Of a stretch of 64,000 nt of DNA, positions 1 through 11,528 are shown one piece after another (within the stretch, counting starts at the first letter, position 1; each line of letters begins with the position of its first letter). This stretch comes from an uncultured Verrucomicrobiae bacterium (GTDB taxonomy: Bacteria; Verrucomicrobiota; Verrucomicrobiia; Chthoniobacterales; UBA10450). The DNA is taken from assembly GCA_963791385.1 (NCBI GenBank), contig CAWBSH010000030.1, positions 188,381 through 252,380 on the forward strand, given 5' to 3'. A model generated the notes under the pieces. That model ran no database searches and was not told the origin of the DNA. It worked only from the letters and a program-made list of their open reading frames with translations. The translations under genes were made by a program, and so were the position numbers.

Positions 1-970
1 GTGGTCCATGCTTTCGACCGCCGCGATTGCCGCTTGGACGGCGACTGGATCGAGGGTGAGTGAGATGTGGTCGATCCCCGGGAGAACTGTAACAGGAACA
101 TCTTTGCCAGCTGTCTTGAAAACGGCTGCAAACCGATCGGCGTACGACACGTCATCATTTTGACCGACGAGCACCCGAAGGGGTTTCCTAATCGCTCGAA
201 TGTTTGCCTGGTAATCGCGCTCAGGCCTGAAGTTCTGTGCGAGGGCGAAGGAATATTGCGGGGTGAGCAAGCCTTTGTCCCTCTCGTCGACCGCGAATCT
301 AACCACCGGCAGGTCGTCAAACGCGTGCACTCCAAACCCGTTGAGCACGGCGATCGCGATGATGCGCGGAACCCCCACGGTAGCCCAGCCGCCGCTGCCC
401 GGACGCAACGTTGCTGCGTCCTGACTGATCCAAGGAGAAAGAAGAAGATAGTTGGAGAATAGTTCCTGACGTGGACTGCCCGCGAAGCGAAGCACAAATC
501 CGCCGCCGGAAGAGAATCCGGCGAGCGTGGAAGGCTGAGCCAATTTGGTCGAATGGACAAAGTCTTCGAGGTCGTCCTCCAACTGTCCGATATAGGCGAT
601 GTGGCCTTTGGTGCCTGATTTGCCGTGTCCGCGGATGTCCAGCGTGTAAGCTGCATACCCAGCGGCGGCAAATCCCTTGGCCATCAGGTGCATGCTGCTG
701 CCACTGGCAGAGGAGCCGTGCACGAGCACCACACTGCCTTTGATCGCGCCACCGGCAGCGGGGTAGGCCCGAAAGGCGAGCTTAGTGCCATCGCGAGCCG
801 TAACGTGAGTCGCGTTCCGGTAAATCGGAGAAATCCACGTTCTTGAAAGGGTCATTAATGCTCGACATTGGCGGCGGCGCCTCGCCTGGTCCGCCAAGTG
901 CGATCGCGAGTCCAAGGGCCGCCACAAGAACTGCAACAACAATAAGGATGGTGACGAGAAGACGCTTCAT
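1..970 (-). CDS. Cassette-borne secreted alpha/beta-fold hydrolase. The C-terminus lies beyond the window and there is an apparent frameshift near 800-850.
   Basis: My translation of the minus strand in the frame of codon 1-3 is open from 855 to 1. It reads ...ARDGTKLAFRAYPAAGGAIKGSVVLVHGSSASGSSMHLMAKGFAAAGYAAYTLDIRGHGKSG...TLAGFSSGGGFVLRF...VLVGQNDDV...LPGIDHISL, giving a GxSxG nucleophile elbow plus Asp and His candidates. The signal-peptide ORF 782-970 (MKRLLVTILIVVAVLVAALGLAIA) is in another frame and starts 7 nt after the attC R' box. Confidence 0.75.
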
Positions 971-977
971 GCGATAG

Positions 978-1102
978 GCCTAACGAGAACAAGATCAGCG
1001 ACGGCTACCGGGAGCGAGCGCTAAATCGAAGTGGAAGTGTTTTAATCATGGGAAAACGTGCTCGTGCAACGGGTAGCCGTTCGCTGCATCGCAGGGTTAG
1101 AC
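978..1102 (-). repeat. Integron attC site (attC5, counted from attI)
   Basis: The plus strand reads GCCTAACGAGAACAAGATCAGCGACGGCTACCG...CGGGTAGCCGTTCGCTGCATCGCAGGGTTAGAC. The arms are complementary, with 3 extra bases on the high-coordinate arm. Confidence 0.8.
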
Positions 1103-1115
1103 GGCGCGGTCGAGT

Positions 1116-1385
1116 TCAAAGCCGGCGTTTATCGCAGAATTCTTTTCCTGCCTCGCTTAGCAGAATATCCCCAGTTCTTTGCAGGCTCACTCGCGCGGTT
1201 CCGTCCTCCGGAAACTCTAACTTAGCTAATTTGACTGGAAGATCGATATATCCGGCCGCGTGTAGCTCCAGCACCGCGTCTGCTGTGATGCCCTGAAGCT
1301 CGCCTTCGGCGGGTTGCTCACCATGATTGAGGCGGCAGAACAGGCGGAGCGTCTTCTCGGCATCTTGGCTTAACTGCGTATTCAT
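1116..1385 (-). CDS. Hypothetical 89-aa protein, second gene of a two-gene cassette
   Basis: An internal ATG of ORF 1116-1574 gives MNTQLSQDAEKTLRLFCRLNHGEQPAEGELQGITADAVLELHAAGYIDLPVKLAKLEFPEDG.... This ATG overlaps the upstream gene's stop as ATGA at 1382-1385. The stop lies 13 nt before attC5. Confidence 0.55.
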   Translation of the reverse strand: MNTQLSQDAEKTLRLFCRLNHGEQPAEGELQGITADAVLELHAAGYIDLPVKLAKLEFPEDGTARVSLQRTGDILLSEAGKEFCDKRRL

Positions 1386-1630
1386 CGGGATGTGAACATG
1401 CTGGTGCAGAATCCTAACAGTAGAGAGACGACGATAACCATGATAATGATCAAGCATCCCACGTTGAAGACGCGTTCCGTCCCGGATTTGCCGAGGAATC
1501 CACGTTTGATTGGGTGACCGCAATGCGGACACTTGTCCGCTTCCGGACTCACTGGATTGGCGCATGAAGGGCATTGTTGGAGAGCCTTATATTTTGATTT
1601 GGGTGTGTGCGAGTGCCGTCTAACGTCCAA
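1382..1630 (-). CDS. Zinc-ribbon membrane protein (CxxC...CxxC followed by one TM helix). The start is uncertain.
   Basis: ORF 1382-1699 contains CPSCANPVSPEADKCPHCGHPI followed by the hydrophobic stretch VFNVGCLIIIMVIVVSLLLGFC. No ATG, GTG, TTG or CTG lies between the R' box of attC4 and the first Cys. The nearest start is TTG at 1630, inside attC4. Confidence 0.55.
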   Translation of the reverse strand: MDVRRHSHTPKSKYKALQQCPSCANPVSPEADKCPHCGHPIKRGFLGKSGTERVFNVGCLIIIMVIVVSLLLGFCTSMFTSR

Positions 1631-1740
1631 GCTCAGGCACAGCCGCCAGAGCGGGACGTGGCCTGCAATGATGATGTTCGAGTTTCCATAGTCGGTCAAA
1701 TGCCCGGCGCAGCGGCTGTTGCCTGCAGCGCTTGTTAGGC
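1618..1740 (-). repeat. Integron attC site (attC4)
   Basis: The site reads GTCTAACGTCCAAGCTCAGGCACAGCCGCC...GCGGCTGTTGCCTGCAGCGCTTGGTTAGGC. The arms are complementary, with extra bases on the high-coordinate arm. Confidence 0.75.
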
Positions 1741-2416
1741 GCGAGGATGTCCCCCGCGTTTATCACACCATCGCCAATAGCCGTTTTCGACTCGTTCTGC
1801 AAGTTCAGCGACTACCTTTAAGCCAACGTCCACGAAGGTGTCATCGACCGGCTTGTCATCCGATTGCACCTCGTCAGCAATGCGTGTGAGCGTGATCTTG
1901 ATCTGAGCTGGGAGATCGCGATCGAGCTTGTGGATATAACGGTTCCTGAGTTCCCTGATGGCATCGAGGTTCCTCCAGAGGTCCTTGCTGACCTCGAATT
2001 CCAAACCGCATGTTCTGGTCAGAAAGAGTATGTAACGGTTGACGTCACGGCAACTGTCTCTGGTCAGGCTCTGGATCCGCCCCGATCTCTGAAGCGATTT
2101 CACGAACCACGTCACTCAGCAGGTTCTCGATCAGCGCGAGACCTTGAGAAAGAACAGCGCATCGAAGGAATTCTGGAAAATACTCTTCGTCGGAAAGAAC
2201 TACCTCGTCTTTGATGATCTCCATTTCTCCTGAACCATCTGTCTTTCCGGCTTGAAGGTCGGTCAGGTATCCTGCAATGAAACGCCGTGTAAACTCCCAG
2301 TGCCGTTGAAGGCTGTTAAGGCGGGACGCGAACTCGTAGAATGCCCGGAGAAACCGCTCGCTGGGTTGATACAACGGTTCGAGTTCAAGTGCGTCGTTGA
2401 AAGCATCGTTCGCCAT
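1735..2416 (-). CDS. HEPN-domain protein (RiboL-PSP/Swt1-like Rx4H motif) in its own cassette. There is an apparent frameshift near 2045-2115.
   Basis: ORFs 2045-2416 and 1735-2115 overlap in different frames. The second carries AIRELRNRYIHKL, which is R-x4-H. A CCCC run at 2080-2083 is a candidate indel site. The TAA stop is the TAA of the attC4 GCCTAAC box. Confidence 0.6.
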
Positions 2417-2434
2417 CTAATCTTCGTCTTCAGC

Positions 2435-2557
2435 GCCTAACGAGAACAAGATGAGCTGCTGCGAGCGGGAGCGCGCTCGGTGGCGGGCGAAGGCGTGGAA
2501 GCCATGGAAAACGAGGTCGGACGCCGGGTCGCAGTCAGCTCCATCGCTTTGTTAGGG
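2435..2557 (-). repeat. Integron attC site (attC3)
   Basis: The site reads GCCTAACGAGAACAAGATGAGCTGCTGCGA...TCGCAGTCAGCTCCATCGCTTTGTTAGGG, with complementary arms. Confidence 0.75.
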
Positions 2558-3116
2558 CTTTCTGAACGGCCGGACCTTGCAGCGCAGTCCATAACGCGTC
2601 CCATTCGCTCCCAAGCCAAGAGGAAGCATCTTCGGAAAGCGCCTCAAGGCGAAAGGGCTCGCCGTAATAGAGGCCCTCGGTGTAAAAGTCTAAGCCGTGC
2701 TCCACAAGTTGCTGAGGCAAAAGGCGAGCGACCTCCGATACGTCCAATGGCGGGCCATCGCCGCTCAAAAATGCCTCTGATACAAGATGCGCATAAATCA
2801 GCTTGGCAACCGCTTCATCCAGTCGCCAGTTTAGGGAGATCGCCATCTGGCCTCCCGACACTTCTGGCAGGAGTTGATGCGCCTTCTCAAGGCTTTCGTT
2901 TACCTGACGCTTGCGTTCTTCTGCTGACATCGCAAGAATCAACGGATCAATTTCGTCGTCAGTGCGGGGGCGAACGCCGCCCAAGCCATACAGTTGAATG
3001 CCATCGACGAGCGAAATGAATAACGTCGCGCGGTTCAACTCCTCATTTATGGATAACAAGTGTCTGGCTATATCGTGATCTGACAACCATACAACTTCAT
3101 GGACATGCAGGTGCAT
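2535..3116 (-). CDS. Hypothetical cassette protein (~193 aa) with no recognisable domain
   Basis: This is ORF 2535-3134 trimmed to the ATG at 3116, which lies 3 nt after the attC2 R' box (MHLHVHEVVWLSDHDIARHLL...). The reading frame passes through the attC3 R'' box and stops 16 nt inside the site. Confidence 0.55.
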   Translation of the reverse strand: MHLHVHEVVWLSDHDIARHLLSINEELNRATLFISLVDGIQLYGLGGVRPRTDDEIDPLILAMSAEERKRQVNESLEKAHQLLPEVSGGQMAISLNWRLDEAVAKLIYAHLVSEAFLSGDGPPLDVSEVARLLPQQLVEHGLDFYTEGLYYGEPFRLEALSEDASSWLGSEWDALWTALQGPAVQKALTKRWS

Positions 3117-3119
3117 AAG

Positions 3120-3243
3120 ACCTAACGAGACCAAAATGAGCGACGGCGGACGAGAACGCGCGTCGCTCGGAGTGGGAGTGTGGAAGTCATTTCAACAGTG
3201 GAGCGTACAGCGGTCCGCCGTTCGCTCCATCGCATGGTTAGGC
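3120..3243 (-). repeat. Integron attC site (attC2)
   Basis: The site reads ACCTAACGAGACCAAAATGAGCGACGGCGGACG...CGGTCCGCCGTTCGCTCCATCGCATGGTTAGGC, with complementary arms. Confidence 0.8.
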
Positions 3244-3741
3244 CTTTTCACCGTAGCAAGTCGGGGTTGAGTTCGAATGATGCCGGATTTCCGTGCCGTC
3301 GGCGCCAAAGCTGAGCGCGCTCTCCGCATGAAAACTAATGTATGCATCTGCTCCCGGTTCTGCAGCAATCTTCTGGAGCTCTGCGAACTGGTACGGCTTG
3401 AGGTCGCCGTGAAATCTCGTCTGGCCTTGCGCGAGTGCTTGCAGAATGCGTGTGTCGACGGAGTCGAGACACGTCTTTAGCCGCTCTTTGAGCGGCTTTG
3501 GCTGCGACGCTTTTAGCGCCGCATCTACTTGCTCCTGCATCTGTGTTTTCCACTGGTCGTCTAAGCTCTTCTTGAGCATGCCGAGAAGCGGTGTAGCGAA
3601 AGTGACAAAGAGGCTGATAAAGAGCGACAGCTTGTGTAAGCGGCGCGGCAGAAGGCGCTCAAAGCGGACAGCAACGCTACAGAGCGCTCCGACCAAGCTG
3701 ATCCAGAGTGCGTGATTCGCAATCCAAATGAGGATGCGCAT
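3238..3741 (-). CDS. Hypothetical cassette membrane protein (~167 aa, two N-terminal hydrophobic helices)
   Basis: This is ORF 3238-3795 trimmed to the ATG at 3741, which lies 5 nt after the attC1 R' box (MRILIWIANHALWISLVGALCSVAV...LSLFISLFVTFATPLLGML). The TAA stop lies within the attC2 box GCCTAAC. Confidence 0.55.
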   Translation of the reverse strand: MRILIWIANHALWISLVGALCSVAVRFERLLPRRLHKLSLFISLFVTFATPLLGMLKKSLDDQWKTQMQEQVDAALKASQPKPLKERLKTCLDSVDTRILQALAQGQTRFHGDLKPYQFAELQKIAAEPGADAYISFHAESALSFGADGTEIRHHSNSTPTCYGEKA

Positions 3742-3746
3742 GTTAG

Positions 3747-3870
3747 GCCTAACGAGAACAAGCTGAGCCACCGCTGGCGGCGGCGAGCGTGGCAAACACT
3801 CTGAACAGTTTCATAAAATCAAATGTGGATAATACAACGGGCAGCGGTGGGCTCCAGCGATTGGTTAGGC
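3747..3870 (-). repeat. Integron attC site (attC1)
   Basis: The site reads GCCTAACGAGAACAAGCTGAGCCACCGCTGG...CAGCGGTGGGCTCCAGCGATTGGTTAGGC. The arms are complementary, with 2 extra bases on the high-coordinate arm. Confidence 0.8.
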
Positions 3871-3936
3871 TGGGCGAACAAAGCCGGCGGTAATCGGTTT
3901 GGAGCAAAGGCATCCGGACTTTGGCGAGTTTGTGTT

Positions 3937-4389
3937 CTACCTCTTTTTTCGCGGATCGTCATTAGGATTAATGAAGGTCACGCCCGCCGGGCCAGTAAAA
4001 GTCACCTGGACAATAACCTCCGTATCTTCCGTCCACGTATAATGCGCGTGCCCAGCCGGAAGCACGAACACACTCCCAGGACGCAGCTCCACCCCTTTAC
4101 TTTTATCAAAGCTCTGCCCAAAAGAATTCCAGTAATTCCCGCTTAACACCGTCACCACTTCTGCATACGGATGCGTGTGCGGAGGTACCCTGTAGTGCGG
4201 CGGAAACTTCGTCCGCTGCACTATCGTCTCAGCCTTCGTCGGGTCCCCGACTAAGATTACCGTCTGGGCACCCTTGAACACTGGATGCTCTGTCCACACC
4301 AAGTCCTCCGCCTTCATCATCTTCATCTCTTGCCCGGATCCGCCCCCGGCCAGCCCCAGCAGCGCTAAACCAATCAGTATCCGTTTCAT
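3937..4389 (-). CDS. Secreted cupin-domain protein, first cassette
   Basis: There is a signal peptide, MKRILIGLALLGLAGGGSG. Cupin motif 1 is HTHPYAEVVTVLSG (HxH-x3-E-x6-G) and motif 2 is GSVFVLPAGHAH (G-x5-PxG-x2-H). Confidence 0.8.
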   Translation of the reverse strand: MKRILIGLALLGLAGGGSGQEMKMMKAEDLVWTEHPVFKGAQTVILVGDPTKAETIVQRTKFPPHYRVPPHTHPYAEVVTVLSGNYWNSFGQSFDKSKGVELRPGSVFVLPAGHAHYTWTEDTEVIVQVTFTGPAGVTFINPNDDPRKKR

Positions 4390-4428
4390 ATTTTTATTTC
4401 ATCAGCATAAGCAATGTCAGGCGCATAA

Positions 4429-4485
4429 GCCTAACGAGAATTAGACGAAGGTTCGTAATAAAAGGCGAACATTTTTTCGTCTAAC
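4429..4485 (-). other. attI-like primary recombination site
   Basis: The minus strand reads TAA-T-GTTAGAC-(31 nt with an internal hairpin)-GTCTAAT-TCTC-GTTAGGC. This is an inverted L/R pair ending in the same TCTCGTTAGGC junction as every attC R' end. An upstream direct copy (GTTAGAC) is also present. Confidence 0.5.
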
Positions 4486-4486
4486 A

Positions 4487-4780
4487 TTATCCTGAAGGCG
4501 GGTTTTCGACGATCGGCGACTGGTCCAGTGGGCTGCGGATGTGGACGCCGGGACGGTTCAGCACATGGGTGTAAATCATGGTGGTAGCGACGTTTTTGTG
4601 GCCGAGCAGTTCTTGAACGGTACGAATGTCGTACCCGTTTTCAAGCAAATGGGTGGCGAAGCTGTGCCTCCGCGTAAAAGCTACGCTCACGCGGTCGGCG
4701 TGATCGGATTCCTTTTGAGATAATTTGCAAGCTGAGCTTTTAGAAATCGCCTGCCGTTTCCGCTCTTCAAGTAGCGTTCT
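4487..4780 (-). pseudogene. intI: Integron integrase intI, C-terminal fragment only (box II and catalytic Tyr region)
   Basis: The C-terminal part of ORF 4487-5008 reads [57 protein letters not shown]. The THVLNRxxxGVxSPLD tail is typical of IntI rather than XerC/D. About 230 N-terminal residues are absent. The fragment is unambiguous from about 4693 downward, and the junction is estimated at about 4780. Confidence 0.75.
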
Positions 4781-5008
4781 CGCCCTCAGCCAAATGAATT
4801 TAGGCGGATGGCCGAGCACAATAACTCTTTGATAGAAATCAGTATCCTTGGAGACGATCGTGAAGCCTTGCTGCTTTGCCCACTTCCAAACCGCGCTGTC
4901 ATCGGCTTGCTTCAAGCCGACAGTTTTGATGTGCGCCGAATCGGGAAACAAATCAGCAATCCGCTGAACAATCCTATGCGAAACATTCCCATCCAGAAGA
5001 AGCTTCAC
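4781..5008 (-). pseudogene. DUF5615 (PIN-like, Mut7-C type) toxin, truncated after ~76 aa and fused in frame to the intI fragment
   Basis: The N-terminal part of ORF 4487-5008 reads [75 protein letters not shown]. This matches the DUF5615 pattern up to the conserved IWLR, where family similarity stops. Confidence 0.6.
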
Positions 5009-5229
5009 GCAGGGGCAACGAAAAGCTTCCTCTCGCGATCAGCGGCAAACGCCAAACACGCCTGAATGTCTTCGCGGGTGAGCTCGGGAAAATCCCGTAG
5101 TACCTGGTCTTCGGTCATGCCCCCGGCTAGATACTCGAGGATGTCTTGAACCGTAATGCGCATTCCGCGAATGCACGGCTTACCGCTGCGCTTGCCAGGC
5201 TCGATGGTGATGATTTTGGAGTAGTCCAT
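5005..5229 (-). CDS. DUF433 antitoxin-like protein
   Basis: The sequence [63 protein letters not shown] is the typical DUF433 pattern. There is a 4-nt overlap with the downstream DUF5615 ORF. Confidence 0.8.
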
Positions 5230-5296: not shown

Positions 5297-8200
5297 TCAC
5301 GCGCGCACAGGCACGCTGGCAGTGCGCTCGAGTTTGCCCCAGCTTACCCAGGCGCCTTTGATGGCGCGCAGGATGGCTTTCCAGATGCAGTAACTGAGCA
5401 TGGGGCGATAGATCAGGCGCATCGGCAAAATGCGCCAGGCGCGCAGGATCGGTTCGCGTTCCAAAATGCAGGCCAGCGTGGCGAGGAGCACGTCCATCGC
5501 CAGGAATGTGATGATGAACGGCAACACCGCGCGCCACACGCCAAATGGGAGTGAGGCCAGCAGGAACAAATCCACCATGGGCGTAACAGCCACGAGTATG
5601 ATTTGGAAAAACCAAATGTTCGGCAAACTGAACCAGCCGAGCGCGCGATAGTTCCAGTTGAACACCATGTCGCGATGCTTCCATAAACATTGCAAAGTGC
5701 CGTACGCCCAGCGGGAACGTTGCCGCGTCAGCGCGCGCACAGTTTCGGGCGCTTCGGTCCACGCGATGGCGTCGGGCACATACACGATGCGTTGATGCTG
5801 TCTATGTAGCGAGAGAGTGAGATCGGTGTCTTCGGCCAGCGTTTCCAGACTCAGGCCGCCCGCTTCGGTGATCGCATTCTTGCGAATGGCGCTAATCGCA
5901 CCCGGCACAACAGTGATGCAGTTCCACCGGTTATACGCGCGCCGGTCCAGGTTAAAGCCGCAGGTGTATTCCAGCGCCTGACAACGCGCGATGAACGTGC
6001 GCAGATTACCGACCTTCGCATGACCTGACACCGCACCGATGCTGCTTATCTGCAAACGGCTCGAGCAAACGCGGGAGCGTGTCGCGTTGACATTGCGTGT
6101 CGGCATCAATGAAAACAACGATGCCGTTATGCGCGGCAGCGAGACCACGTTGAAGCGCACGGGCTTTTCCGTGATTTTGCTGTTGCAACAATCGGACGCG
6201 CGATTCTCCCCGTGCAATGCGCTCAACTTCCGCAGCGGTTTGGTCGCGCGAACCGTCGTCCACGACGACGACTTCAATTTCGCCTTTGTAATCTGTGGCA
6301 AGGAGGGTGCGCAAAGTTTCCGCGATTACTTTCTCTTCATTATATGCAGCCATCACCACGCTGATCGGCTCTGCAAAATCTGATTTCGGTCCACGACGAA
6401 AACGAAACGCAAGCCAGATCACAATCAGCGTGCGAACAACCACGAGCGCCGTCGCGACGATCATAAAGGCCCAGAGGAATTCCTCGATGCTGTGGTAAAC
6501 GCGAAACCCGGTGCTGCTCACGAAACGGCTGAGCGATTGCGCATTGCCCTGCACCGGTGGCATCAACGCGTCGCGCGTCGTTCCCAGCAACGTGCTCAAC
6601 GGCACAACGGTGTCGCCACGCGTATGCAGCCAATCCAAAATGCGCGGAAGCGCTTCGACGGTTTGCGAGCGGTCGCCGCCCGCGTCATGCAACAGGATTA
6701 CGCTGCCATCGTGTCGTTGTTGTTTGATTCGTCGCAGGATGATGTCTGCCCCCGGCTTCGCCCAATCTTGTGGATCGATATTCTCCAAGACCACGAGGTA
6801 ATTGAGGTCTTCCGCGATTTTCAGCGGAGTCAGTTCACTAAGGTCGGTCGGGCCGGTGTCCGCGGCGTAAGGCGGGCGAAACAAGGTGGTCGCTCGGCCA
6901 GTGATCGTTTCGAGCAATAGCTGTGTCGCGTTCAGCTCCAGCCGTATGTGCTCCGGCCAGCAGAGCGCCAGGTTCGGATGGTAATACGTGTGGTTCCCAA
7001 TCTCGTGTCCTTCATCGACGATCCGACGAACAAGCGCGGGGTAACGCTCTGCGTTTACTCCCACGACGAAAAACGTCGCCTTCACGTTTGCTGCTTTCAG
7101 AATGTCCAGGATCTTCGGCGTCCATTGCGGATCAGGGCCGTCATCAAAAGTGATCGCCACCTGATGCTCGCCGCCCGCGCCCTGGTGATAGAGCGTTGGG
7201 AATTCCGCAAACTTTACATATTTGGCGGTGAGATAGCCGTCTCCATCGACAGCCAGCTTTCGCATCCCATCGGTGCGATCCTCGTCAACGGTGACGATCT
7301 CGCCATCGCCGACGTCCGTGATCGTGTCTGTCGATTTGATCAGTTCGAGCGCCTGTCGGGTTTGATTATCGAACTTGAAATCGCGCGGGACGCTGAGCGC
7401 ATCCCAGATTGCCGGGTCCTCGCTGCCTAAGCGATAAAGCGCGAACCCGCCGGCTTTCTGATCGCGCACCGCGCGCAATTGGTTGAGAAATGTCACAGCA
7501 TCCAGAAACCAAACGCCGTGCTCGGCGTCTTCATCCTCGAAATAAAAGTAGGGGCTGTAACTCGGCCCCTGCACATCGACGCTCTCGATCTCGGCGTCGT
7601 TTGCGCGGCTCATTGCTTCGGAAAAACTGATCAGCTCGCCCTTTTTACCGCCGATCGGCCAGTCGTATCCGTAGCTGCCAATTGCGATGATCCATTGTTT
7701 GGCGTCGGAACCTTCGAGCAGCACGTGTAACCAGCCTTCAAACCAAGAGCGGGAGGCCAGCGGCCCCGGCGGGTCCGTTTCCGAGGTTTCATCGAACAAC
7801 ATCGCCACGAAACGATCAATGTTGTCGCTGAGCGCATCGATATCGACGTAATCGAGCTCCTGCCCGGGCTGCACGCACAACCACAGCTCTTTGTTGTCGT
7901 CATGCAACGCGTCGGCGAACTTGTCGATGAATGCGGTGAGATCCTTCTTGTAAGCCGGGTCGATTTGTTCCCAATCAATTACTACCCCCGCGGCCTTCGC
8001 GTTACGCAAAACCGAGAGCACATTTTCGATAAAGTGATCCTGCCGTGTCGGCGGCCCGTGCGCGAGATTCTCAATGGCCTCCGGCTGCCAGGTGTCACCG
8101 ACCAGATTCGTCAGCAGCGGCATCAGCGCGATGCCTTTGTTCGCCGCCAGTTTTGAGACACGACTATCGGAATCAATCTGCAAGTTCCCCGTGCCATCGA

Positions 8201-8786
8201 TCACCGTCATCCATTCTGGACAGAGATGCGTAATCTGAGCCGCATGTTGCTGGAGCGACGCGTAGCTGTCCGGATCGTCATTCACGTAGAATGCCAGTCG
8301 GACTTCGTTGGCAGGCGGTTTCTTCCGAGGGCGCGGCGAAGTAGCCGGCGCTGTTCCGGCAAGCTTTTTCGCCGCCTGCCGTGCGGCGCTAAATTTTTGC
8401 CACAGCAGAGAAGCCGGAGACAACTGGCCGGCCGGATTCTGTCTTTGCAACGCGCGCAATTGACCCTTCAACTGCCGCAACGAAAACGGCACGTTCATTT
8501 TTGGTGTGACAAAGAGCGTTTGAACGAAAAGCACCAGTGCCACAAAGAACACCACGCCGCCGGCAAGCAGAATGAGACGCAGCCGCGGCCAGCGTTTACC
8601 GCTGGGATCGGAGAAAACAAACGGTGTAACCTGTTCCGGAGGAAACTCAGCCATGCGAGGCATATAATCGCGCAAGTCCGAGAATAAGAAAATCCGATTC
8701 TGTGACGATCGCTTGGGTATCGGAGGCAACCGAAGCGAGGGTGCGACAGCCAAAGTTCTGGGGGATCCGGTACAGGCGTCCGCCAA
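5297..8786 (-). CDS. Tri-domain exopolysaccharide enzyme with an N-terminal TM helix, a GH18-like domain, a NodB polysaccharide deacetylase domain and a processive GT2 synthase domain. There is an apparent frameshift near 6036-6050.
   Basis: ORF 6006-8786 carries VVIDWEQ (GH18-like), VAITFDDGPDP...GHEIGNHTYYH (NodB) and VVMAAYNEEK...VVVDDGSRD...FIDADT (GT2). ORF 5297-6301 continues with IGAVSGHAKVGN...TRQRSRWAYG (the QxxRW motif) and C-terminal TM helices. Confidence 0.8.
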
Positions 8787-10193: not shown

Positions 10194-10206
10194 GCGCCGA
10201 ATCAAA

Positions 10207-10273
10207 TTGTAGGGCGTTTCTGTGAAACGCCACGGGTTTATTGGAGTCGGCGTCTGACACAGACGCCCTACAA
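10207..10273. repeat. Compound palindromic REP-like element, copy 1
   Basis: The element reads TTGTAGGGCGTTTCTGTGAAACGCC-17 nt-GGCGTCTGACACAGACGCCCTACAA. It lies between convergent genes. Confidence 0.8.
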
Positions 10274-10304
10274 TTCGGAATTCTACCGATCCCCGAATGA
10301 ACAA

Positions 10305-11471
10305 TCATAGACCGACGCCAAATGTTCGTGCCAACTCGCGCGCGTTCTCGCGCAATAGTTCGGCTGCGTGGCTCATGTTTTCCTGTTCACTCATCCCCGG
10401 CCGCGCGTTCTCGTAAACACCATCGAACACTTCGCGAACCTCTCGATCTTCCGCTGCGCGGCCGACAATTGCGAACACAGGTTTGCCAAGCGTGCGCGCC
10501 AGTCGTGCCACGCCCGCCGGCGTTTTTCCTTCCAGGGTTTGGCGGTCAAGACTCCCCTCGCCTGTGATCACTAAATCGGCATCTTCCATCTTATCTTTCA
10601 AGCCCACAGCTTCTGCGACAACTTCGAATCCCGGACGAATTTTCGCGTTGCAAAAACTCAACAGGCCGAAGCCGAGTCCGCCCGCGGCGCCCGCGCCAGG
10701 TTCGTTGCGATGATCGAATCCAAACTGTTGGGTGGCAACATCGGCCAGCCGGGCGAGGGCCTGTTCCAAAATGTCGATCTTATCCTTTGTCGCGCCTTTT
10801 TGCGGACCAAACACTCGCGTCGCGCCGTTTTTCCCGAGTAACGGATTCTTTACATCAACTGCGGCAATAATCTTCAACTGTAGAGGCAGCCGTGCCGGCT
10901 GCATTGTCGAATTCGCAGGCGGCACGCCGGCCACTAGAGGGGCCTCAATTTTCGTCAGCCCTTGCAGGTCGCTTACAGCTCCCGTCAGCTCCTTTGCATC
11001 GGAAAAAAATCGGAACCCTAAAGCGCGCGCCATGCCGAAGCCACCATCGTTTGTCGCGCTGCCGCCAAGGCCGAGGACGATTTCGCTCGCGCCGCGCCTG
11101 GTCGCATCCAAAATCATTTCGCCGACGCCAAATGTCGTCGCACGAACGGGATCGCGTTCAGTTTCGGAAAGCCGTCGCATTCCCGCGGCTTCGCTCATCT
11201 CCATCACCGCAAGTTTTTCCTGGTCGATCCACCCATAGCTCGCGTCGATCCGGCGGCCGAGAGGATCGTGCGCCTTGCATTCAACCCTGGAACAACCGAG
11301 TGCATCACAAATCGCTTCGGCTGTTCCCTCGCCACCGTCTGCCATCGGCACTATTTCGATCACCGCGTCCGGCAGCACATCGAGCAGCCCCTTCGCGACG
11401 TTTTCCGCAACCTGCCGCGCGTTGAGCGCCCCTTTGAATTTGTCGGGAGCAATTAAGATTCGCACCCCCAT
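10305..11471 (-). CDS. Glycerate kinase
   Basis: The sequence MGVRILIAPDKFKGALNARQVAENVAKGL...IVPMADGGEGT...GLGGSATNDGG is the glycerate kinase family pattern. ORF 10305-11513 was trimmed to the ATG at 11471. Confidence 0.85.
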   Translation of the reverse strand: MGVRILIAPDKFKGALNARQVAENVAKGLLDVLPDAVIEIVPMADGGEGTAEAICDALGCSRVECKAHDPLGRRIDASYGWIDQEKLAVMEMSEAAGMRRLSETERDPVRATTFGVGEMILDATRRGASEIVLGLGGSATNDGGFGMARALGFRFFSDAKELTGAVSDLQGLTKIEAPLVAGVPPANSTMQPARLPLQLKIIAAVDVKNPLLGKNGATRVFGPQKGATKDKIDILEQALARLADVATQQFGFDHRNEPGAGAAGGLGFGLLSFCNAKIRPGFEVVAEAVGLKDKMEDADLVITGEGSLDRQTLEGKTPAGVARLARTLGKPVFAIVGRAAEDREVREVFDGVYENARPGMSEQENMSHAAELLRENARELARTFGVGL

Positions 11472-11472
11472 A

Positions 11473-11528
11473 TTGTAGGGCGTCTGTGTCAGACGCCAAC
11501 AAAGGCGTTTCACAGAAACGCCCTACAA
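11473..11528. repeat. Compound palindromic REP-like element, copy 2 (inverted, compact)
   Basis: The element reads TTGTAGGGCGTCTGTGTCAGACGCC-AACAAA-GGCGTTTCACAGAAACGCCCTACAA. Confidence 0.8.

Follow-up and report, generated by a model that had tools for sequence, protein, structure and literature searches.

The attI-proximal end of a probable sedentary chromosomal integron with a destroyed integrase gene in an uncultured Verrucomicrobiae bacterium

Introduction

Clusters of attC sites without an integron integrase (CALINs) are defined as at least two attC sites within 4 kb of each other with no intact integrase gene, intI, nearby (PMC4889954), and 15 of the 279 CALINs in one survey had a recognisable intI pseudogene as a neighbour (Cury et al. 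2016, PMC4889954). Integrons have previously been reported in Verrucomicrobia (Cury et al. 2016, PMC4889954), and an intI that is co-directional with the array and transcribed towards the attI site is known from Treponema integrons (PMC3607928). The attC site is defined on its bottom strand, in which the R' box reads 5'-RYYYAAC-3' and is cut between A and C, and the R'' box reads GTTRRRY. Extrahelical bases stand on the arm opposite the AAC triplet, the distal one being a conserved T, with a 6-bp stem from the first to the last; the site, 57-141 bp in total, also has a central spacer that stays unpaired and a terminal structure that varies, and its bottom strand exceeds the top in both stability and purine content (Nivina et al. 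2016, PMC5027507). Here we describe a locus at the start of a 64,000-nt stretch of DNA (the window) from an uncultured Verrucomicrobiae bacterium of the Chthoniobacterales (assembly GCA_963791385.1, contig CAWBSH010000030.1, positions 188,381 to 252,380 of the forward strand). Judged from the locus itself, the attC family, the similarity of intI and the shared cassettes point indirectly to a Chthoniobacterales host; megablast of the window against the genome-derived loci found no match to its flank. The literature that we searched contained no paper on Chthoniobacterales integron arrays.

With a probability of about 0.9, window positions 1-~4765 form the attI-proximal end of a chromosomal, sedentary integron like those of soil Chthoniobacterales, co-directional in layout and built by an integron integrase (IntI) whose resident gene has been destroyed. 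By the published definition, the locus is a CALIN with an intI remnant, that is, an integrase-less sedentary chromosomal array: five attC sites are spaced 627-817 nt apart, and an intact intI occurs nowhere in the 64 kb. Of the features that mark a complete integron, the window lacks an above-threshold IntI with the IntI-specific domain and has an attI, predicted to be functional, at the head of the array beside intI, with its crossover in GTTRRRY. The cassettes are discrete units of an open reading frame (ORF) and an attC, in a single orientation, that are gained and lost among relatives. As in sedentary integrons, the attC sites are of one family and the flank is common to six syntenic contigs.

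Like the Vibrio cholerae superintegron with its Vibrio cholerae repeat (VCR) attC sites, the element occupies a fixed chromosomal locus with a conserved flank and consists mostly of promoterless cassettes of unknown function that turn over rapidly between close strains. Its attC sites likewise have large terminal loops, resemble one another and are long (~125 nt) and clade-specific, and a toxin-antitoxin pair is associated with the element. However, the host belongs to another phylum, the intI is co-directional and dead, the proximal extrahelical base is C, not G, and the toxin-antitoxin pair is not a cassette and instead abuts and truncates intI.

Five attC sites of one family

The evidence supports the original prediction, made from the letters of the window, that five regularly spaced elements are integron attC sites. 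All five lie where they had been placed (Table 1). In every one the plus strand opens with GCCTAAC, ACCTAAC or GTCTAAC and closes with GTTAGGC, GTTAGAC or GTTAGGG, the last of these, in a single R'' box, deviating from GTTRRRY at its final position. The first box is followed by GAGAACAAG or a close variant in 4/5 elements. With three mismatches or fewer allowed, 6 copies of the 15-mer CCTAACGAGAACAAG are present in the window where 1.24 would be expected, a count that 0/100 shuffles reach, and CTAAC and GTTAG are near-invariant in 150 family members.

Comparison of the sites bears out that their arms are imperfect inverted repeats. In the RNAalifold consensus of 32 pairs, compensatory changes among the five sequences affect 12, and the observed covariation was matched by 0/500 shuffles. 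Pairing over the five sites reaches 89% in the true register, against 22-42% in register-slid controls. Across 150 family sites, compensatory changes affect 24/32 pairs, including 13 of the 16 in the main stem, and this 16-bp stem is 97% paired compared with ~30% in slid registers, in an alignment fitted to the covariance model, which favours its pairing figures.

Each hairpin comprises the R box, an unpaired spacer, a 16-bp stem with two bulges (C and T) and a large terminal loop. The spacer, GAGAACAA on the 5' arm and 5 nt on the 3' arm, is slightly longer and more conserved in sequence than the typical 5-6 nt, and the terminal region takes up ~50-60 nt of sites that are 123-125 nt long. The unpaired extra bases do sit on the high-coordinate arm of all five sites: one is always T, the other always C, and exactly 6 bp separate the two. 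Among the 150 family sites the T is bulged in 149 and the C in 138, on the 3' arm and 6 pairs apart. The plus strand folds better than its complement in 4/5 window sites; in the family it is favoured in 90%, by a mean of 2.5 kcal/mol, and is 57% purine. With the plus strand taken as the bottom strand, all published structural features of attC sites are present, and the plus strand of every site is accordingly the predicted folding, recombinogenic one. Because the bulged bases lie on the arm opposite the AAC of this bottom strand, the cassettes are oriented on the minus strand. The same orientation had been proposed before, and the extrahelical-base rule (PMC5027507), every ORF and the location of attI are in agreement with it. 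The description of the sites as homogeneous has to be taken as a mean column identity of ~70%.

The gene units fit the same pattern. All plausible genes between the sites are on the minus strand, with stops in or beside the high-coordinate core. Start codons at 970, 2416, 3116 and 3741 lie 3-18 nt from the low-coordinate boxes at 978, 2435, 3120 and 3747, respectively, as had been noted. The R'' box of the site at 3120..3243 contains the stop codon of ORF 3238-3741, whose TAA is that of the minus-strand GCCTAAC, and ORF 2535-3116 stops inside the site at 2435-2557. For 1735-2416, part of the parallel claim stands: the TAA at 1735 does lie in a minus-strand GCCTAAC, but the region consists of two overlapping frames and not of a single open one.

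Table 1. Features of the integron locus, in window coordinates
Feature	Coordinates	Strand	Description
DUF433 antitoxin-like gene	5005..5229	-	Pfam E 8.9e-27; conserved boundary between chromosome flank and integron platform
Chimeric ORF, 173 aa	4487..5008	-	DUF5615 (PIN-like toxin, aa 1-93) in frame with intI remnant; Pfam matches both
intI 3' remnant	4487..4765	-	Last ~60-85 codons (HSFATHLL...LLGH...TMIYTHV); stop 4487-4489; TIGR02249 and Pfam Phage_integrase
attI	4435..4486	-	Conserved after the intI stop in relatives; hairpin z-score -2.9
Cassette 1	3753..4434	-	Secreted cupin, ORF 3937-4389; Cupin_1 and Cupin_2 matches
attC of cassette 1	3747..3870	-	124 nt; R' GCCTAAC 3747-3753, R'' GTTAGGC 3864-3870; covariance model 124.5 bits; hairpin z-score -2.8; covariation
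Cassette 2	3126..3752	-	ORF 3238-3741, 167 aa, hydrophobic N-terminus, no family match
attC of cassette 2	3120..3243	-	124 nt; R' ACCTAAC, R'' GTTAGGC; covariance model 134.7 bits; z-score -3.0
Cassette 3	2441..3125	-	ORF 2535-3116, 193 aa, no family match
attC of cassette 3	2435..2557	-	123 nt; R' GCCTAAC, R'' GTTAGGG; covariance model 119.4 bits; hairpin
Cassette 4	1624..2440	-	One HEPN-like gene, frameshifted into 2045-2416 and 1735-2115
attC of cassette 4	1618..1740	-	123 nt; R' GTCTAAC, R'' GTTAGGC; covariance model 100.7 bits; most divergent of the five
Cassette 5	984..1623	-	Two genes: Zn-ribbon and transmembrane protein (stop 1382-1384), 89-aa ORF 1116-1385
attC of cassette 5	978..1102	-	125 nt; R' GCCTAAC, R'' GTTAGAC; covariance model 127.7 bits; hairpin
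Cassette 6, cut by window edge	1..983	-	Secreted alpha/beta hydrolase, frameshifted; Hydrolase_4 E 5e-22

A covariance model built from the five window sites gave highly significant matches to them and found no other copy in the 64-kb window, the next best candidate scoring 9 bits. This bears on the idea that the elements are generic repetitive extragenic palindromic (REP) sequences, elements resembling miniature inverted-repeat transposable elements (MITEs) or terminators between short genes, unconnected to integron recombination. They are indeed intergenic imperfect palindromes of uniform length without an Rfam family, although the Rfam gathering scan of the whole window, with 0 matches, is uninformative because Rfam has no attC family. 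We nevertheless regard this idea as extremely improbable. Because the model finds only the five array sites in 64 kb, leaving no further copy in the remaining 59 kb, the element is not a dispersed REP. Relatives carry dense same-strand runs of it, and not the scattered single copies of dispersed REPs, bacterial interspersed mosaic elements or MITEs, always with one gene unit between neighbours. Generic palindromes would account neither for the integron core sequences and the correctly spaced, strand-asymmetric bulges, nor for arrays that adjoin integron integrases and a conserved attI, nor for modules of ORF and site that move with breaks at G|TT. Nor is there an enrichment of terminator-like patterns (8 found, 5.9 expected). 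A REP or terminator identity was rejected on the window-wide model scan and these terminator counts.

The attC family extends well beyond the window. Scanning one genome per species with the 15-mer yielded 118 loci (designated by L numbers below, as are further loci found through exact proteins), in which the covariance model detects ~300 sites at E < 0.001, and ~340 sites stand in same-strand arrays across all fetched loci other than the window. Almost all matches are in metagenome-assembled genomes (MAGs) labelled Chthoniobacterales, Udaeobacter, 'Spartobacteria' or Verrucomicrobiae, and the dense arrays of L058, L007 and L034 hold about 14 to 21 sites per 8 kb. The array in the window is cut by the window edge; homologous cassettes suggest that it reaches past position 1, and in one relative the adjacent chunks L061 and L097 hold at least 21 sites in 16 kb.

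Sites of the family come in two length classes, ~124 nt and ~97-108 nt, the latter with a shorter terminal loop, which are mixed within the same arrays (model matches of ~108 nt and ~135 nt in L120-L125, L037 and L119). Strong family matches also occur on 3.8-7.5 kb contigs binned as Acidobacteriota MAGs (L008, L033, L057, L105 and L106). These may reflect mis-binning of repetitive array contigs or cross-phylum transfer.

An attI site and the remnant of an integron integrase

The window, L055, L117, L039, L089, L121, L122 and L124 share a conserved sequence of ~52 nt past the intI stop, which L025, L048 and L062 have in part (nine or more loci altogether), and this conservation halts exactly after ...TTCGTCTAATTCTCGTTAG (GTTAG). 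Because the conserved sequence runs to the G|TT crossover, with cassette sequence beyond, we assign 4435-4486 as attI, with its crossover between 4435 and 4434. The minus strand reads GTTAGAC (4485-4479) ... GTCTAAT (4446-4440)-TCTC-G(4435)|TTAGGC, and the arms TTAGACGAA and TTCGTCTAA form a hairpin. Two of its core-like boxes are direct and one is inverted, an arrangement that we take to recall the direct repeats and simple site of attI1. The sixth GCCTAAC of the region, at 4429-4435, is the attI core. A sixth, short attC at 4429-4485 was considered and rejected, since this sequence lacks a 3' GTTRRRY and relatives retain it immediately behind the intI stop. Two attI types occur among the related loci, and they share the layout RYCTAAC-GAG.A ... 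GTCTAAT.

Upstream of attI lies what is left of the integrase gene, with an approximate 5' limit (4693-4765) and without box I or the IntI-specific domain. Its best NCBIfam match, ranking above XerC and XerD, is the integron integrase model TIGR02249 (positions 256-314 of 315, E 7e-26), at 91 bits against a cut-off of 265, and the Pfam Phage_integrase match covers positions 101-169 of 172. Searching the 64 kb by tblastn with the intact IntI of L022, L055 and L116 returned no other intI-like sequence. Those three proteins, of 347, 352 and 364 aa, respectively, score 445-478 bits against TIGR02249 (cut-off 265), and each heads an attC array. The DUF5615 part of the chimeric ORF is itself truncated at the 3' end, as the Pfam match covers positions 1-93 of a 110-position model, and the same DUF5615-intI chimera occurs in L122. 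In L039 and L089, attI is kept with no intI upstream; intI has therefore been lost more than once.

The intI stub is co-directional with the cassettes, its stop codon beside the array. This layout is also found in L055, where intI is intact, and in L025 and L117, where it is decayed. It resembles that of the Treponema denticola-type integrons, in which intI, attI and cassettes share one strand and attI directly follows the intI stop. Unlike those, the window comes from an unrelated phylum, has another attC family and retains only an intI stub, and its relatives show both layouts, co-directional in L055, L025 and L117 and divergent in L022 and L116. The divergent genes, at 5082-6125 of L022 and 6476-7570 of L116, and the co-directional one at 5587-6645 of L055 accompany the same attC family. 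In L022, a 26-aa duplicate of the intI 3' end is present at 6500-6583.

Cassette turnover at a fixed chromosomal locus

The exact DUF433 protein recurs in six contigs (L120-L125) from three samples, at the same locus. Their common flank comprises a cystathionine-lyase-type gene, chorismate synthase, gatB, glycerate kinase, a 1118-aa GH18-deacetylase-glycosyltransferase gene, DUF433 and the DUF5615-intI junction, and it is 94-99% identical to the window beside the array and 85-90% further out. All six contigs have the same dead intI and no cassette in common with the window, and among themselves they carry two further array haplotypes with internal gains and losses. An attC 89% identical to that at 3120..3243 is found in L121, L122 and L124, beside other cassettes. 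Full synteny among relatives would have spoken against a cassette array; instead, cassette content is polymorphic at one chromosomal locus, with breakpoints at G|TT.

The breaks are of two kinds. Homology with L121, L122 and L124 stops at 4431, the attI crossover. Against L120 and L123, with their 99% identical flank, divergence sets in abruptly at ~4661-4688, inside the intI stub, suggesting that homologous recombination replaced the array as a whole.

The six contigs also bear on the possibility that this is a complete, active integron whose integrase appears truncated only through assembly or sequencing error. Some errors are conceivable, given several single-base frameshifts in the window relative to relatives. 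Yet independent contigs from three samples all show the DUF5615-intI junction, and ~265 intI codons are absent, with a toxin-antitoxin pair and its conserved flank in their place, which no indel error yields. An artefact of this kind is thus very hard to credit, and we retain the reading of an array whose resident intI has been destroyed.

Individual cassettes also appear in other surroundings. L119 has the cupin cassette at 100% aa and 97.8% nt identity with different neighbours: there it is followed directly by the hydrolase cassette (87% identity), whereas in the window four cassettes intervene, and homology between the two loci breaks at G|TTAGGC on both sides. The hydrolase cassette is found in further arrays as well, those of L064 and L027. 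The attC that follows the cupin in L119 differs from its window counterpart in that the central ~59 nt are inverted, non-palindromic loop included (L119 619-677 vs window 3765-3823), and a second, shorter attC-like site (~108 nt) comes next. This arrangement may stem from inversion of the hairpin loop or from rearrangement of a double site.

Other genes were observed in and around these arrays. IS110-family (DEDD) transposase genes stand within or at the head of related arrays (L055 3745-4974; L119 2249-3382; L121 14303-15406). The syntenic arrays include a cassette of the beta-lactamase inhibitor protein (BLIP) family (L121 15604-15906; L122 16843-17145; L124 16231-16533), followed by two T2SSE-type ATPase genes (L122 17669-19725). 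On the flank, the gene for a GH18/polysaccharide-deacetylase/glycosyltransferase-2 protein (5297-8786, minus strand) is split into the overlapping ORFs 6006-8786 and 5297-6301 by a 1-nt insertion at 6044-6045; L120 and L123 lack the insertion and have a single 1118-aa gene, and in L122 the gene is split as well. This insertion, breaking the glycosyltransferase gene at ~6044, is the single indel over about 10 kb of flank compared with L120 and L123. The conserved flank also contains a repeat pair (10203-10232 / 11469-11498, also 10207-10274 / 11472-11528), ~30-68 nt long, 82-83% identical and ~1.27 kb apart, which holds a small GC hairpin, GGGCGTTTC...GAAACGCC, and is unrelated to the attC family.

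Cassette contents

The cassettes encode few recognisable functions. No family was found for cassette 2, cassette 3 or the 89-aa ORF of cassette 5 in Pfam or NCBIfam, even at E <= 10. No other occurrence of the exact cassette 2 protein was found, and the exact protein of cassette 3 recurs on one other contig only, of 1.2 kb.

Cassette 4 had been predicted to encode a HEPN protein, an assignment that remains weakly supported. Its repaired translation has 34 homologues, most of them 219-247 aa long and a few shorter, the best being a single 226-aa protein that is 93% identical over 100% of the repaired query; because the homologues are single proteins, we treat cassette 4 as one frameshifted gene. 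The RNxxxH motif is invariant among homologues, which favours HEPN, but the matches to DUF4145, HEPN_Cthe2314 and RiboL-PSP-HEPN are all sub-threshold. The search against the PDB gave a weak match to HepS (E 0.11).

The two-gene module proposed for cassette 5 is borne out insofar as there are two ORFs with an overlapping stop and start (ATGA), but the first has no canonical start before the R box: no ATG, GTG or TTG lies between its Zn-ribbon domain (Zn_ribbon_3, E 1e-7) and that box. The Zn-ribbon ORF (1382-1699, minus strand) stays open through the upstream attC (1618-1699), and its sole canonical start is inside that attC.

The secreted hydrolase of cassette 6 has both the signal peptide and the hydrolase body that had been predicted, but they are split between different frames, 782-970 and 1-855, with the shift at ~815-835. 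Homologues that are intact in a single frame stand within the arrays of L119 (354 aa), L064 and L027.

Assembly, expression and present state of the array

We propose a layout in which intI is followed by attI and then by six head-to-tail cassettes, all on the minus strand, each a promoterless gene unit with an attC of ~124 nt. Cassettes would have entered at attI (G4435|T4434) by IntI-catalysed recombination of the folded plus strand, and would have been excised by recombination between attC sites, likewise by the integron integrase. A deletion or fusion may then have destroyed intI, also removing the 3' end of DUF5615 and leaving the stub joined in frame. As the resident intI is destroyed, the array cannot recombine on its own. 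Later changes may have been the work of an integrase encoded elsewhere that used the intact attI and attC sites in trans, of homologous exchange of arrays, or of both. Action in trans is plausible because CAWBIP010000002.1 has a complete integron (L116) as well as a separate attC stretch ~2.9 Mb away (L040), with no intI found within the 8 kb of the latter.

The proximal cassettes are probably transcribed by read-through from a predicted toxin-antitoxin promoter at 5266-5238, a sigma-70-like pattern match just upstream of the DUF433 gene. Given one shared direction for stub, attI and cassettes, and no promoter-like match other than that upstream of DUF433, read-through is the simplest model of expression. 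No convincing terminator was found before the cassettes, and promoter-like matches in the window overall are not enriched.

Several observations weigh against the integron as we reconstruct it. No intact integrase was found within the 64-kb window. Two of the six cassette genes are frameshifted, which may mean a decaying, inactive array or an assembly error. The proximal bulged base is C where the usual base is G, although G is described as usual and not as required. The promoter is a bare consensus match, and the promoters of this phylum may differ.

Some of these points bear more directly on whether the array is still changing by site-specific recombination. It could be a fossil, built before intI was lost and now inert, with the strain differences due only to homologous recombination, attC-attC deletion and insertion sequence (IS) activity. 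Such a history is possible but, in our judgement, unlikely. It fits an intI that is dead here and in all six syntenic contigs, a break with the closest strains (those with the 99% identical flank) inside the intI stub and not at attI, two frameshifted cassette genes and the IS110 transposases of related arrays. It does not readily explain why the breakpoints relative to L121, L122, L124 and L119 fall exactly at the G|TT crossover, and the 97.8% identity of the cupin cassette in a different context suggests recent movement. Moreover, the attI and attC structures are still intact and covarying, and intact IntI exists elsewhere in related genomes.

At the other end of the range, and more doubtful still, platforms of attI and array that lack their own integrase might persist in this clade as working 'satellites' that depend on a master integrase encoded elsewhere in the genome and acting in trans. 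Pointers in this direction are that attI has been kept after repeated independent losses of intI (the window type, L039 and L089), that arrays behind the same dead intI differ completely, and that at least one relative has a complete integron together with a separate attC stretch on one chromosome. If satellite arrays of this kind exist, the fusion of the toxin-antitoxin pair with intI might supply both stabilisation of the array and a promoter for its cassettes.

Relation to other integrons and significance

As in other CALINs, at least two attC sites occur without a functional intI, and the window falls in the minority class with an adjoining intI pseudogene. It differs in showing its own history: attI has survived, and the deletion junction is defined and common to strains with different arrays. 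With the class 1-5 mobile integrons, the locus shares attI, attC and the logic of the G|TT crossover, but its attC sites are long and homogeneous instead of short and heterogeneous, it carries no resistance genes, and it lies in a chromosomal housekeeping flank without an intact integrase. BLAST of positions 1-4500 against plasmids gave only a weak match to the hydrolase, and there is thus no link to known mobile integrons.

The locus is a well-resolved further example of a known system and does not reveal a new mechanism. Integrons have been studied mostly in Proteobacteria, and the machinery described here belongs to Verrucomicrobiota of the Chthoniobacterales/Udaeobacter type, a soil lineage represented here by MAGs only. 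For this clade the locus supplies a specific attC model and a defined attI, with both integrase orientations among related genomes. The series of strains that share one dead integrase and carry different arrays can be used to ask how CALINs keep changing.

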